Notes under the pieces: model-generated
What the model was told of the DNA's origin: nothing
Databases searched by the model: none
Seen by the model: only the letters and a program-made list of their open reading frames with translations
Assembly: GCA_964533495.1 (NCBI GenBank)
Contig: CAZHJU010000014.1
Coordinates: forward strand, 2,421 to 66,420
DNA length: 64,000 nt
Direction of reading: 5' to 3'
DNA from: an uncultured Bordetella sp.
GTDB lineage: Bacteria; Pseudomonadota; Gammaproteobacteria; Burkholderiales; SG8-41
Shown here: positions 13,004 through 18,838 of the stretch, piece by piece
Position numbering within the stretch: position 1 is the first letter of the stretch
Layout: each line of letters opens with the position of its first letter
Translations under genes and position numbers: made by a program

Positions 13004-13990
13004 CTATGCGCCGGAGCACGCGGCAACTTCCGGATTCAGCAGGTTGCGCCGGTCGTACGCCTCGCCGCGCAGCCAGCCGATGATGTTGTTCGCGGCAATC
13101 GTGCCCATGCGCACCATCGCCTGCGTGGTCGCCGCGGCGATGTGCGGCGTGACGATCACGTTGGGCAGCGCAAACAGCGGATTCGCCGGATCCGGTGGCT
13201 CCACTGCGAAGGTATCGAGGCCGGCCGCCGCCAGCCGGCCACTGGCCAGCGCCGCCACCAGCGCCGTCTCGTCGACCACCGGGCCGCGCGCGGTGTTGAT
13301 CAGGATTGCGCCCGGTTTCATCCGCGCGAACTGCGCAGCGCCGATCAGGCCCCGCGTTTTTTCGGTCAGCGGGCAGTGCAGGCTGACGATGTCGGCACGC
13401 TCCAGCAGCCGGTCGAACGCCGCTTCCCGCGCCATGCCCTCCGGCAACACGGCCTCCGAACGGGTGTGCACCAGCACCTGCGCGCCGCAGGCCTGCGCCA
13501 GCCGCGCCGTGCGCTCGCCGATCTGGCCGAAGCCGACGATGCCGACCGTGCGTTCGCGGAAATCCCGCGTTAAATGATTGAGGTCGCGCCAGCGGCCCTG
13601 CCGCGTCGCGCGGTCGAAACCCGGCAGCTCGCGGCACAGCGCCAGCATCATCATCAGCGCGTGCTCGGCCACCGCGTCCGCGTTCGCGCCGCCCGCGACC
13701 ATCACCGCCACGCCGCGACGCGTCGCCGCGGCGACGTCCACCGAATCCACGCCGGCGCCGTGCTTGGCCACGATCTTCAGCCCGCGCGCCGCCTCGAACA
13801 CCCGCGCCGTCAGCGGCGGCGAACCGCGCAGCAGCACCGCGGCGACCCTGCCCGTCGACAGCGCCCGCAGCAGCGCATCCTCGTCGATGGTTCCCGGCAT
13901 GAACTCGATCTCCGCGCCGCCTTCGCGCAGCAGGCCCTGCGCGAGGTCGGACACGGTGGCGGCGGTGACGAGGACGACCGGTTTGCTCAC
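13004..13990 (-). CDS. D-isomer-specific 2-hydroxyacid dehydrogenase (SerA/hydroxypyruvate reductase-like)
   Basis: HGAGVDSVD, VAEHA, GIVGFGQIG, LINTARG, LDTFAVEP, TPHIAA; GTG start. Confidence 0.93.
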   Translation of the reverse strand: MSKPVVLVTAATVSDLAQGLLREGGAEIEFMPGTIDEDALLRALSTGRVAAVLLRGSPPLTARVFEAARGLKIVAKHGAGVDSVDVAAATRRGVAVMVAGGANADAVAEHALMMMLALCRELPGFDRATRQGRWRDLNHLTRDFRERTVGIVGFGQIGERTARLAQACGAQVLVHTRSEAVLPEGMAREAAFDRLLERADIVSLHCPLTEKTRGLIGAAQFARMKPGAILINTARGPVVDETALVAALASGRLAAAGLDTFAVEPPDPANPLFALPNVIVTPHIAAATTQAMVRMGTIAANNIIGWLRGEAYDRRNLLNPEVAACSGA

Positions 13991-14176
13991 GTCTTTTTCC
14001 TTTTCGGGGAAGCGGTTTCACGAATGAAGCGCGCAGATTACCCGATTGTCGCCGCCGCGCAGAAACTTGTTCACATCGGAGCCGCGGTTGCCACTAGAAT
14101 GTGGACGTCGGTGACGCGCACCCACTACACAAACCGCGCGCCCGGCATCCATGTCACCACACATTGGAGGAGAACA

Positions 14177-15139
14177 ATGAAACGCTGCGCATCCCTTGTA
14201 CTCGGCGCCCTTGCGCTCGCGCTGGCCGGCCAGGTCGTCGCCCAGCAGTACCCCAGTCGCCCGATCCGGCTGATCATCCCCTTCCCGGCCGGCGGCAACG
14301 TCGACGTGTTCTCGCGCGTGCTGTTCCGGCAGGTCGAAGCGGAACTCGGCACGCACTTCGTCATCGACAACCGGGGCGGCGCCAACGCCATCGTCGGCTC
14401 CGACATGGTCAGGAACGCCACGCCCGACGGTTACACCGTCATGAACACCTCCTTCGGCTTCGCGGTGAACCCGGCGATCCTGAAGAAAATGCCCTTCGAC
14501 GTGATCCGCGACTTCACGCCGGTCACCAACGTCGCCACCGGGCTCGGCTACCTCGTCGTGGTCAATCCCAAGCTGCCGGTCAAAAACACCGCCGAACTGA
14601 TCGATGCCGCGAAGAAGCAGCAACTGCGCTACAGCACGGCCGGCATCGGCAACGGCCAGCACCTGGCCGGCGCGCTGCTGGCGAGCATGGCCAAGGTCGA
14701 CATGCTGCACGTCCCGTACAAGGGCGGCGGCCCCGCCGCCGCAGCCGCGATCAGCGGCGAAGTGCAGGTGCATTTCCCGGCCGGTTCGGTCGGCGTGCCC
14801 CACCACAAGGCCGGACGCCTGCGCGCCATCGCCTTCACCGGCGCCAAGCGCCTGGAGTCCCTGCCGGACATCCCGACCGTCGGCGAAACCGTCAAGGGCT
14901 ACGTCTCGGACGCCGGCTGGCACGGCGTGTTCGGACCGGCGAAAATGCCGATGCCGATCGCGCGCAAGCTGCAGCAGGCCATCCACAAATCGCTGCAGGA
15001 GCCGAAGATCAGGGCGCACTTCGTCGACAACGGCTACCAGCCCAACGGCGACCCGCCGGACGTCTGGGCGAAGCAGTTCCGCGAAGACGTCAAGAAGTTC
15101 GCGGCCATCGCCAAGGCCGCCGGCATCGAGCCGCAGTAA
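14177..15139 (+). CDS. Bug/TctC substrate-binding protein
   Basis: GGAGG RBS, signal peptide, YPSRPIRLIIPFPAGG, DNRGGANAIVG, HVPYKGGGPA. Confidence 0.94.
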   Translation: MKRCASLVLGALALALAGQVVAQQYPSRPIRLIIPFPAGGNVDVFSRVLFRQVEAELGTHFVIDNRGGANAIVGSDMVRNATPDGYTVMNTSFGFAVNPAILKKMPFDVIRDFTPVTNVATGLGYLVVVNPKLPVKNTAELIDAAKKQQLRYSTAGIGNGQHLAGALLASMAKVDMLHVPYKGGGPAAAAAISGEVQVHFPAGSVGVPHHKAGRLRAIAFTGAKRLESLPDIPTVGETVKGYVSDAGWHGVFGPAKMPMPIARKLQQAIHKSLQEPKIRAHFVDNGYQPNGDPPDVWAKQFREDVKKFAAIAKAAGIEPQ

Positions 15140-15330
15140 GCCCAAACATCACGCCGGCAGTCCTGCATCCGCAACTGCCGGCGGCATGTCCGCGACAAGA
15201 CGGTCGCACCCAGCCACCGCCCGGCGGAATAGAAGGATGCTGCCGCCTGTTCCACACGCAGGCGACGGCCTCCGGCTAGAATGGCCATGCAGTCCGTCCG
15301 CAGTCTGCCATCAGACCATTCGGAGACACC

Positions 15331-15855
15331 ATGCACCCGCTACGATCCCTCCTCACCGCCGGCGCGTTTGTCCTGGGTTTCGCGCTGGCAGGCCCCGTGG
15401 CAGCCGGCACCCTCGCGCCGCTGCCGCAGCCGACGCCGATGCCCTCGTTCAAGATCCCGGGCATCAACGGCAGCGGCGGCAGCGATGCCGACCTGCGCAA
15501 CAAGGTCACCATCATCCGCTTCTGGGCGTCGTGGTGAAGCTCCTGCGTACGCGAGCTGCCCTCCGTGCAGAGGGCGCATGACGAACTGAAAAAAGACGGC
15601 ATCCAGGTCATCACCATCTCGATCGACGGTACCGGAGGAACCGCCGTCAAGCCGATCTTCGCCAAGGGCGGCTACACCATGCCCGCGCTGCTCGACCAGG
15701 ACATGAGCGTCGCCCGCGGTTTCGGCGTGCGCGGCGTGCCATCCACGGTCATCGTCGACAAAAAAGGGCTGATCAACGCACGCGGCCTCGGCCACGTCGA
15801 TTTCGACGGCCGGGTGCTGCGCAACTACGCGCGCGACCTCGCCCGCATCAAGTGA
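15331..15855 (+). CDS. TlpA/ResA-like thiol-disulfide oxidoreductase, probable selenoprotein (UxxC; TGA at 15535-15537 read as Sec, codon 69)
   Basis: Track ORFs 15331..15537 and 15565..15855 are in the same frame. Reading through TGA gives RFWASW-U-SSC-VRELPS...GVPSTVIVD, the TlpA FWAxWCxxC motif plus the cis-Pro loop. N-terminal signal peptide. Confidence 0.88.
15557..15576 (+). promoter_or_regulatory. Candidate bacterial SECIS hairpin for the TlpA-like gene
   Basis: TGCCCTC-CGTGCA-GAGGGCG stem-loop; loop starts 26 nt after the TGA and has G at position 2. Confidence 0.55.
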
Positions 15856-15875
15856 ATCGTCAACGGAGGACCACG

Positions 15876-16451
15876 ATGTCGAAGCTGCCACTGCTGCACC
15901 GCTGGATCGCCGCCGCCCTGCTCGGCGCCGCCATGCTGCTCGCCGCGCCCGCGCAGGCCCAGGTGCCGAAACCCGGCGACAGGGCGCCCGCGTTTTCCGT
16001 GATGTCCACCACCGGCAAGCCGGCGGCGCTCGCGGATTACCTCGGAAAGAAGAACGTCGTCCTGTTCTTCTACATCGCCGCCTTCACCGATACGTGAACG
16101 ACCGAAGTCGTGGCCTTCCAACTCGATCTCCCCGAGTTCGAGGCCACCAATGCCCAGGTCCTGGGCATCAGTGTCGATTTCAACGCCGCCAACACCGAGT
16201 TCGCCGCCAAGCTCGGGCTGAAGTTTCCGCTGCTCAGCGACACCCGCCGCGAGATGACCCGCGCCTACGGCGTGCTCAACGACGATCCGGCGCTGGCGAA
16301 GGACGGCAAACGCATCGCCGCCTACCTGCGCGCCAAGCGCTCGTGGTTCATCATCGACCGCGAAGGCATCGTCCGCTACGCCAACGTCAACGATCCGCGC
16401 GGCATCATGCCCAACGACGAACTGCTGGACGTACTGCGCAAGCTGAAATAA
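15876..16451 (+). CDS. Peroxiredoxin (AhpC/TSA, BCP-like), probable selenoprotein (TGA at 16095-16097 read as Sec, codon 74)
   Basis: Track ORFs 15852..16097 and 16110..16451 are in the same frame. Readthrough gives VVLFFYIAAFTDT-U-TTE, matching the Prx FYPxxxTxxCTxE motif; also LGISVD, FPLLSD and RSWFIID. GGAGG RBS and signal peptide. Confidence 0.88.
16098..16147 (+). promoter_or_regulatory. Candidate SECIS hairpin(s) for the peroxiredoxin
   Basis: GTGGCCTT..AACTCG-ATCTCCC-CGAGTT..GAGGCCAC (16110-16147) starts 12 nt after the TGA. An alternative ACGAC-CGAA-GTCGT hairpin (16098-16111) starts immediately after it. Confidence 0.5.
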
Positions 16452-16462
16452 AATTTCTTAAA

Positions 16463-16475
16463 AATCAAATACTTA
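16463..16475 (+). promoter_or_regulatory. IHF consensus site AATCAAATACTTA
   Basis: Perfect WATCAANNNNTTR with an upstream AT tract, between the convergent Prx and yciI-like genes. Confidence 0.65.
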
Positions 16476-16489
16476 TGTAGATTCCCCGG

Positions 16490-16792
16490 TCAGGCGCCCT
16501 CGGCCGCGCCCGGATTCCACTGCCCCTTGCGCATGCGGGTGATGGTGATGCTCTGAAATACGCCCTTCTGCGTAAAGGGATCGCCGTCGGAAAATTTTTT
16601 CGCTTCCGCGCGGCTGTTGACGTTGACGATGAACAAGCTGCCGACGGCCGCTGTGCCTTCGTCGTTCTGCGTCGCGCCGGCAAGCACGAGAATGTGCTTC
16701 TGGCTGCCGAGATACTCGCGGTGGGGAATCAGCACCGATTCGCGGATCGCCGCGGTATTCGGTTTGTCGACGCAGGAAATGGCCCAAAGCAT
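16490..16792 (-). CDS. YciI family protein
   Basis: CVDKPNT..IRE....HREYL, AG...ND....GSLFIV, DPF...GVF. Confidence 0.88.
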   Translation of the reverse strand: MLWAISCVDKPNTAAIRESVLIPHREYLGSQKHILVLAGATQNDEGTAAVGSLFIVNVNSRAEAKKFSDGDPFTQKGVFQSITITRMRKGQWNPGAAEGA

Positions 16793-17860: not shown

Positions 17861-18838
17861 TCAATCCATGCTGATGTTCAGCGGCCGCGCGACCTTGATC
17901 CACTTCGCGATGTCGTCGTCGATCAGCTTGCCGAAGGCCGCCGGCGACATCTCCGTCGCCTCGACGCCGACGCCGAGCAGGCGCTCCCGGACTTCCGGCA
18001 GGCGCAGCGCGATCTGCACCGCGCCGTGCAGCCTGTCGATCACCGCCTTCGGCGTGCCTTTCGGCGCCACCGCGCCGTACCAGCCGCTGACCGCATAACC
18101 GGGCAGGCCCGACTCGGCGATCGTCGGCACGTTCGGCAGCGCCGGCGTGCGTTTCGGCGTGGTCACCCCGAGCCCGCGGATCTTGCCCGACTGCAGGTGC
18201 GGCCGCGCCACCGCGACCGTCGAGAAAAACACCTGCACGCGGCCGCCGAGCAGGTCGGTCATCGCCGGGCCGCCACCCTTGTACGGCACGTGCAGCATCT
18301 TCACGCCGGCGAGCGAATTGAACAGCTCTGCCGCAAGGTGGGTCAGGTTGCCGGTGCTCGACGAGGCGTAGGTCACCTTCCCCGGATTCGCCTTCGCCCG
18401 CGCGATCAGTTCGGCGCTGTTCGACACGCCGGCCGAAGGATGCGCGACCAGCACATAGGCGCCGTCGCCGAACAGCGCAACCGGCACGAAGTCGCGCGCG
18501 GTGTCGTACGGCAGCTTCTTGTACAGCGCCGGGTTCACCGCGTGGCCGGCGGCGACCACCAGCAGCGTGTAGCCGTTGGGCGCGGACGTGGCGACGATCT
18601 CGGAACCGATCAGCGTGTTGCCGCCGCCGCGGTTGTCGACGATCACGTTCTGGCCCAGTTCCTGGGTCATCACCGGCGCCAGCAGGCGCCCGATGATGTC
18701 GTTGGCGCCGCCCGGCGGATAGGGCACCACCATGCGCACCGGGCGCGCCGGAAAGGACTGGGCCTGCGCGGGAATTGCGGTTGCGGCGGCGGCAGTGGCC
18801 AGCACGGCGCCCGCCAGCATGCGGATCGTTCTGTTCAT
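17861..18838 (-). CDS. Bug/TctC substrate-binding protein
   Basis: FPARPVRMVVPYPPGGAND, VDNRGGGNTLIG, HVPYKGGGPA. Confidence 0.94.
   Translation of the reverse strand: MNRTIRMLAGAVLATAAAATAIPAQAQSFPARPVRMVVPYPPGGANDIIGRLLAPVMTQELGQNVIVDNRGGGNTLIGSEIVATSAPNGYTLLVVAAGHAVNPALYKKLPYDTARDFVPVALFGDGAYVLVAHPSAGVSNSAELIARAKANPGKVTYASSSTGNLTHLAAELFNSLAGVKMLHVPYKGGGPAMTDLLGGRVQVFFSTVAVARPHLQSGKIRGLGVTTPKRTPALPNVPTIAESGLPGYAVSGWYGAVAPKGTPKAVIDRLHGAVQIALRLPEVRERLLGVGVEATEMSPAAFGKLIDDDIAKWIKVARPLNISMD

Follow-up and report, generated by a model that had tools for sequence, protein, structure and literature searches.

Peroxiredoxins with selenocysteine (Sec) in a TxxU motif are a long-known family of bacterial selenoproteins (PMC1088965, PMC13188914), and as the class is known already, the enzyme considered here is in itself no discovery. 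The model of the bacterial selenocysteine insertion sequence (SECIS) places the apical loop 16-37 nt from the UGA codon and sets the minimum free energy at -7.5 kcal/mol or lower (PMC13188914). In the fdhF gene of E. coli, G23 and U24 of the loop GGUC are the determinants for SelB, and the base of the minimal SECIS hairpin lies 11 nt after the UGA (PMC8659212). About 13% of the known bacterial selenoprotein genes have SECIS elements described as 'atypical' (reviews PMC13188914, PMC12013277). As regards function, the route from ScsB/DsbD through TlpA to PprX in Caulobacter was the first periplasmic peroxide-reduction pathway to be described (PMC3322552), and homologues of PprX occur in Bordetella and Burkholderia, where they use DsbD (Cho et al. 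2012, PMC3322552). Here we consider a stretch of 64,000 nt from an uncultured Bordetella sp. (assembly GCA_964533495.1, contig CAZHJU010000014.1, positions 2,421 to 66,420 of the forward strand), referred to below as the window. It holds a candidate Sec-peroxiredoxin gene at 15876-16451, preceded by a second candidate selenoprotein gene. The insertion signal of the peroxiredoxin gene appears to break the 16-37 nt rule underlying bacterial SECIS predictors, the excess distance being folded away. The enzyme belongs to a known class; the layout of its SECIS appears new in the literature examined, where no description of a spacer-plus-SECIS arrangement was found.

The peroxiredoxin gene has the following features.

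15876-16451, forward strand: open reading frame of the Sec-peroxiredoxin, BCP/PrxQ-like and Cys-free, 191 aa with TGA read as U
15865-15869, forward strand: Shine-Dalgarno box GGAGG, 6 nt 5' of the peroxiredoxin ATG, read from the sequence
15876-15959, forward strand: putative Sec-type signal peptide MSKLPLLHRWIAAALLGAAMLLAAPAQA, a hydrophobic N-terminus read by eye, likely cut after AQA
16095-16097, forward strand: UGA read as Sec (U74) at the peroxidatic position, by alignment to Cys or TGA in relatives and given the Sec machinery of the genome

Read through the UGA, the frame contains the motif FFYIAAFTDT-U-TTE, with U74 encoded by the TGA at 16095-16097. Thr71 of the active-site motif is retained, the Pro of PxxxTxxC is replaced by Ile67 (codon 16074-16076), the catalytic Arg155 is kept in KRSWFIID (codon 16338-16340), and there are zero Cys codons in 15876-16451. 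In all these respects the gene is what the first-pass annotation, made from the letters alone, had taken it to be: a 1-Sec peroxiredoxin lacking Cys, in which Sec occupies the peroxidatic site, Ile stands for Pro and the catalytic Arg is kept. The Pfam family AhpC-TSA (PF00578) is matched at 1.4e-33 (115.9 bits against a cut-off of 26), and Redoxin is matched as well. The AlphaFold model has a peroxiredoxin fold (pLDDT 88.1) and a low-confidence N-terminal helix at residues 7-21; its best Foldseek matches are all peroxiredoxins (E 2e-18). The nearest folds are Bcp4 of S. solfataricus and the 1-Cys enzyme AhpE of M. tuberculosis (TM 0.89-0.92, target-normalised; 31-39% identity). When the sequence is compared with those of known structures, BCP/PrxQ proteins rank first, and the best relatives in NCBIfam are likewise BCP/PrxQ. 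None of the NCBIfam models names this peroxiredoxin, and the PrxU equivalog NF040737 (Eubacterium acidaminophilum type) gives 47.7 bits, far below its cut-off of 270. The open reading frame is best described as encoding a putative 1-Sec peroxiredoxin of the BCP/PrxQ type, predicted to be exported. The region 15300-16500 is reproduced with zero differences in the per-run assemblies of four metagenome runs of one study, and therefore the TGA is not an assembly artefact.

In common with the known Sec-peroxiredoxin family (PF00578/COG1225), which figures in the Sargasso Sea and GOS surveys of Zhang and Gladyshev, the protein has the AhpC/TSA fold, the motif T-x-x-U, Cys in homologues and a candidate SECIS within the coding sequence after the UGA (PMC1088965, PMC13188914). 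Unlike that family, it is putatively exported, is Cys-free, has lost the Pro, and has a TlpA-like UxxC partner and a two-hairpin signal. With AhpE and Bcp4 it shares a single catalytic chalcogen and the need for an external reductant. However, these two enzymes are cytoplasmic, Cys-based and keep the Pro, whereas the present one has a 7-residue insertion (the DDPALAKDGKRIAAYL region) and a predicted signal peptide.

The in-frame TGA almost certainly encodes Sec, as judged from gene content and comparison of genomes. The genome to which the window belongs (3.03 Mb, 83 contigs, 97% complete) contains tRNA-Sec (75.9 bits), SelB (436.8 bits), SelA (580.7 bits) and SelD (424.8 bits), all above the curated cut-offs. 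The first three genes lie within 7 kb in a sel locus (contig C11, 13612-20569).

Contig C11, 13612-13702, reverse strand: tRNA-Sec gene of the sel locus
Contig C11, 17118-19001, reverse strand: selB, sel locus
Contig C11, 19232-20569, reverse strand: selA, sel locus
Contig C46, 8515-9444: selD, apart from the sel locus

We propose that UGA74 is decoded by this SelA/SelB/SelD/tRNA-Sec system. The comparison covered 80 related loci from species-representative genomes. The peroxidatic codon is TGA in 55 of them and TGC or TGT in the other 25; in the aligned column of U74, TGA occurs in 55 related loci and TGC or TGT in 29. The catalytic codon may be TGA, and is never TAA or TAG. The loci with TGA come from Pseudomonadota, Entotheonella, Myxococcota, Rokubacteria, Nitrospinota, Methylomirabilota, Chloroflexota, Bacillota and Acidobacteriota, a spread of about eight phyla. 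Of the 37 species genomes of the genus, 31 contain an orthologue, and each of these orthologues has a single in-frame TGA; so does every one of the 32 recovered across genus and order. The maximum-likelihood tree places the protein in a 34-member clade of Sec forms (support 100/99), with two Cys forms, L097 and L098, nested in it. A protein search also returned two true Cys forms, with the motif FTNACTQE.

Public annotation gives a different picture. About 100 protein clusters consist of 113-aa "redoxin" fragments from metagenome-assembled genomes of Burkholderiales, corresponding to the C-terminal part starting at GTG 16110, and this is the only product annotated. It would suit a true stop at the TGA, or near-cognate suppression by Trp or Cys, the gene then being a pseudogene or yielding two products, one of them translated from GTG 16110. 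We regard this as very improbable. The fragment lacks the signal peptide and all of the active-site motif, and in dozens of genomes the first 73 residues show conservation that continues in frame across the TGA into the remainder, which also contradicts translation from GTG 16110 only, a possibility that the first-pass annotation had left standing. Further points against it are that a stop-type codon at the catalytic site is always TGA, that orthologues have Cys at this position, and that Sec machinery and conserved RNA structure downstream are present. Finally, the "full-length" proteins from JGI, which have W at the Sec position, owe it solely to TGA being read as Trp.

Three hairpins have to be considered downstream of the UGA.

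16098-16111, forward strand: hairpin 1 (H1), ACGAC-CGAA-GUCGU, -4.1 kcal/mol, incidental
16110-16147, forward strand: hairpin 2 (H2), loop AUCUCCC, a conserved 38-nt helix, -19.5 kcal/mol, z -5.3, the proposed spacer
16150-16168, forward strand: hairpin 3 (H3), AUGCCCAG-GUC-CUGGGCAU, loop at 16158-16160, -11.5 kcal/mol, the proposed SelB-binding SECIS

H3, an 8-bp stem two nt 3' of H2 in the region encoding NAQVLGI, was overlooked in the first-pass annotation, although its conservation is the one most strongly tied to the Sec state. All eight pairs are formed in 33 of the 36 Sec forms carrying an H2-type helix, compared with one of 29 Cys forms and none of the 18 Acidobacteria Sec forms (Fisher p 6e-14 and 1e-11, respectively; since the sequences are related, these are upper bounds on significance). 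Paired cells make up 98.2% of the H3 alignment, as against 23-42% in slid controls. Among distinct sequences the pair 57-73 occurs 12 times as C-G, 12 times as U-A and three times as U-G, and it couples a synonymous Asn site with an Ile/Val change. In the stem, none of the synonymous sites C60, G63 and G69 varies among the 36 sequences, while all four bases are seen at the synonymous loop site 66. Where the same AQVLG peptide is encoded, the six inner pairs are intact in all 33 Sec forms and in only 2 of 22 Cys forms. Conservation of H3 is therefore not merely codon bias, because the two contrast groups, Cys forms and Acidobacteria, lose the pairing. The Acidobacteria Sec clade has a textbook proximal SECIS, GGCGUAUC-AGGCU-GAUAUCGCC, whose loop follows the UGA by 23 nt, and in this clade H3 is no longer under constraint. 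Constraint on H3 thus coincides exactly with the absence of a proximal G-loop hairpin.

H2 is a real conserved RNA helix. In the alignment 87% of its cells are paired, and compensatory changes are seen in the pairs 21-48 (C-G in 15, U-A in 10) and 30-40 (U-A in 19, G-C in 3, C-G in one). The window holds the C-G variant of H2, in which the Leu codon CUC pairs with the Glu codon GAG; relatives have CUU with the Lys codon AAG. In all 36 two-hairpin Sec forms the helix is 35-42 nt long, starts 13-19 nt and ends 50-55 nt from the U of the UGA. Helices of this type with unrelated sequence occur in five lineages (Methylomirabilota, two Chloroflexota, Bacillota and one Acidobacteriota). The apical loops of the H2-type helices vary by lineage (AUCUUCC, ACC, CACGGA, GCU, ACAA) and share no motif, G or GU; in the clade of the window the loop is G-less, and the closing pair is G-C. 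An alternative register of H2, CUCGA/UCGAG with an 11-nt loop containing GAGU, was ruled out, as position 30 covaries with position 40 and not with 46.

RNAalifold predicts both H2 and H3 (86 columns), and both are also present in the single-sequence minimum-energy fold. That 86-nt fold has in addition an outer helix, 5-9/77-82, which was rejected: by eye, the relatives are non-complementary there, and while the UGA is being decoded these bases are within the ribosome. Rfam gave no matches in the window at gathering thresholds; its bacterial SECIS models miss these elements.

In several respects H3 is similar to the bSECISearch model and to the fdhF element: it has a stem of at least 4 bp and a small G-U (or GGUC-like) loop, and it lies in the coding region 3' of the UGA. 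Its apex is CCAG-GUC-CUGG, which becomes the loop GGUCC if the closing pair opens, and the loop bases G64 and U65 match the SelB determinants G23 and U24 of E. coli. The loop GUC is of the kind accepted by the model, the energy of -11.5 kcal/mol is below the limit of -7.5, and the loop resembles those of the other SECIS elements in this genome (GUC, GUG and CGUGCA). Unlike the model and fdhF, the loop of H3 is 60 nt from the UGA, with a conserved hairpin of 35-42 nt in between. This is outside the range of 16-37 nt; with the 38 nt of H2 discounted, the distance is 22 nt, which is within it. H2, in turn, has its base 12 nt and its loop 28 nt after the UGA, inside the range, and its -19.5 kcal/mol is well below the limit of -7.5. 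However, its loop is not of the accepted kind unless the closing G-C pair is opened, giving a 9-nt loop with G in the first position.

From the conservation and covariation of H2 and H3, and from the link of H3 to the Sec state, we infer the following arrangement. H3 would be the docking hairpin for SelB, with an apical loop of the G-G-U-C type. H2, which begins 12 nt past the UGA, immediately beyond the mRNA channel of the ribosome, would fold away 38 nt. With H2 folded, the UGA would be separated from the base of H3 by 14 unpaired nt and from its loop by an effective distance of about 22 nt, comparable with 19-26 nt in the other SECIS elements of the genome. That H3 binds SelB and that H2 is looped out as a spacer seems fairly likely from the sequence comparisons. 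We lean slightly towards the broader view that this is a natural bipartite bacterial SECIS found in about eight phyla, in which the looped-out spacer enables a SelB hairpin 60 nt off. Su, Li and Gladyshev are said to have shown in 2005, in Nucleic Acids Res, that an engineered SECIS in the 3' untranslated region works in E. coli through proximity created by base-pairing, reportedly at low efficiency. The principle in common is spatial proximity replacing sequence adjacency; the present layout differs from that construct in being natural, within the coding sequence, and conserved across about eight phyla.

Several points weigh against this interpretation. The only precedent for a non-contiguous bacterial SECIS that we know of is the engineered construct. 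SelB would, moreover, have to reach a hairpin that is displaced by the breadth of an intervening helix. H3 follows in part from the conserved peptide NAQVLG and from a preference for GC-rich codons; in all forms alike the Val codon dictates its G-U; and the Cys form L098 also has all eight H3 pairs. The Sec sequences are phylogenetically related, and so the counts overstate the number of independent events. Finally, H2 begins where a canonical minimal SECIS does and passes the model once its closing G-C pair is opened, and could thus bind SelB itself.

This last point leads to the most serious competing explanation, namely that H2 is the SECIS, recognized by SelB through its pyrimidine-rich loop or through a 9-nt loop starting with G31, and that H3 is accessory, raising the efficiency for example by pausing, by acting on mRNA stability or as an additional site for SelB. 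The position of H2 speaks for it, with the base 12 nt after the UGA as compared with 11 nt in the minimal fdhF element (PMC8659212), the loop at 28 nt in the range of 16-37, and conservation with compensatory changes; the canonical SECIS of the Acidobacteria occupies the same position, and with the closing G-C pair opened the formal model accepts H2 (PMC13188914). On the other hand, the loop varies among lineages without a common G or GU, the other three SECIS elements of the genome are all GU-looped, and the explanation does not account for the synonymous sites of H3 being frozen only in those Sec forms that lack a proximal G-loop hairpin. We consider it unlikely, albeit worth keeping in mind.

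The first-pass annotation had suggested instead that H1 and H2 are mutually exclusive SECIS candidates whose competition tunes Sec insertion. Both hairpins indeed fold as it described, each in isolation, the nucleotides 16110-16111 are common to both, and the H1 loop has G in position 2. H2 is far above chance and conserved; H1, however, is at chance level. In a gapless alignment of 31 orthologous sequences 45% of the H1 cells are paired, no better than in slid controls (24-44%, except 4% at the slide of -2), and only close relatives retain the hairpin. Perfect 5-bp hairpins with loops of 3-8 nt occur once per about 79 nt in the window, and H1 is not in the RNAalifold consensus structure (86 columns). 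The overlap with H2 amounts to 2 nt, that is, the two basal pairs of H2, and the two hairpins coexist in the minimum-energy fold of a related locus, L021. When the UGA is in the A site, the bases of H1 are inside the mRNA channel, in the stretch covered by the ribosome. The loop CGAA is acceptable to the SECIS model, but it lies 5 nt after the UGA instead of at least 16, and the energy of -4.1 kcal/mol does not reach -7.5 (PMC13188914). H1 has no role, and regulation by competition between the two hairpins is highly improbable.

The gene upstream of the peroxiredoxin also contains an in-frame TGA, which had gone unmentioned in the first-pass annotation.

15331-15855, forward strand: TlpA/ResA-like thioredoxin-fold gene, putatively exported, motif WASW-U-SSC, in-frame TGA at 15535-15537
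15558-15575, forward strand: canonical SECIS of the TlpA-like gene, GCCCUC-CGUGCA-GAGGGC, predicted by folding, loop 26 nt after the UGA

The protein matches the Pfam families AhpC-TSA, Redoxin and Thioredoxin_8, and the ResA/TlpA-like models of NCBIfam below their equivalog cut-offs. The loop CGUGCA is identical in 26 of 27 sequences (the window and 26 loci), and the stem has compensatory variants CCCUC/GAGGG, CCUUC/GAAGG and CCCGC/GCGGG. The two genes probably form one operon, since only 20 nt separate the TlpA-like stop from the peroxiredoxin start. The pair is syntenic, with both TGAs, in 25 loci. In three loci from Myxococcota and Rokubacteria the partner has CxxC and the peroxiredoxin has Sec, and the Cys revertant locus L097 has Cys in both genes. 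Clustering of the open reading frames around 56 loci in search of a third gene (DsbD, CcdA, ScsB) was noisy in this GC-rich DNA, and the TlpA-like gene alone was consistently linked. A DsbD homologue is present in the genome (DsbD_TM, 332 bits).

These observations suggest a redox relay. Sec74 would be oxidised by peroxide to selenenic acid in the periplasm; as the protein lacks a resolving Cys, the selenenic acid would probably be reduced by the Sec/Cys pair of the TlpA-like partner, and this UxxC protein would be recharged by DsbD. The gene pair looks like a selenium version of the periplasmic TlpA-PprX peroxide pathway. As in Caulobacter crescentus, there is a putatively exported peroxiredoxin of the PrxQ type, a TlpA-like protein as its likely reductant, and a transporter of the DsbD family in the genome. 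Unlike in Caulobacter, both proteins have Sec at the nucleophile and the genes are adjacent; PprX has two Cys, whereas the present peroxiredoxin has no resolving Cys. The combination of a Sec-peroxiredoxin, a SECIS consisting of H3 and a spacer, and reduction by the TlpA-like protein and DsbD is our best explanation of the locus, and as a whole we hold it to be rather likely.

Sec and the loss of the active-site Pro seem to be coupled. At the Pro position of PxxxTxxC, 50 of 54 Sec forms have V or I, whereas every one of the 29 Cys forms has Pro. The nested revertants are no exception: the two loci with both Cys and Pro (L097 and L098) lie inside the clade that has Sec and no Pro. Sec at the peroxidatic site may relax the need for this otherwise invariant residue.

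The genome was also scanned for in-frame TGA codons with coding-like GC content in third codon positions on both sides. The convincing candidates are the peroxiredoxin gene and two genes with a UGSC-type motif; the scan missed the TlpA-like gene and hence is non-exhaustive.

Contig C1, TGA at reverse-strand position 184232: candidate selenoprotein gene, motif G-D-U-G-S-C (UGSC type)
Contig C9, position 31675, reverse strand: candidate selenoprotein gene, motif G-D-U-G-S-C (UGSC type)

Both UGSC-type genes have canonical hairpins, with loops GUC and GUG 19 nt after the UGA. In the Acidobacteriota (loci L047-L066) the Sec-peroxiredoxins often occur as tandem paralogues, and in many of them a C-terminal Cys (in ...ACSLLE) might serve as the resolving residue. 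In the window, the stop codon of the peroxiredoxin gene is followed by a short, very AT-rich intergenic stretch (16452-16500, AAATTTCTTAAAAATCAAATACTTATGTAG) between convergent genes, in a genome that otherwise has 66% GC. Genes for periplasmic binding proteins of the Bug/TctC type, with N-terminal motifs typical of the family, are found nearby (13574-15139, 17861-18838 and others). Open reading frames of this type also occur near the Sec-peroxiredoxin pair in 19 related loci, probably owing to the abundance of the family in Burkholderiales. A Pfam search with one such frame (14179-15139) gave no match, and the frame or the start is probably wrong.

If the proposed layout is true, the bacterial 'distance rule' would be a matter of three-dimensional proximity and not of distance along the sequence, and Sec insertion could be tuned through the stability of the spacer. 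The layout would account for some of the 'atypical SECIS' genes missed by predictors, and would offer a design principle for selenoprotein engineering, in that a SECIS need not overlap the codons beside the UGA. The loss of Pro in the Sec forms and its return in the Cys revertants is a clue to the effect of selenium on the active-site requirements of peroxiredoxins. For the organisms themselves, the gene pair appears to be a conserved and wholly mis-annotated two-selenoprotein module of periplasmic peroxide defence, of which databases show only the 113-aa fragment, and which would occur in the majority of species of this Burkholderiales genus as well as in many further lineages.

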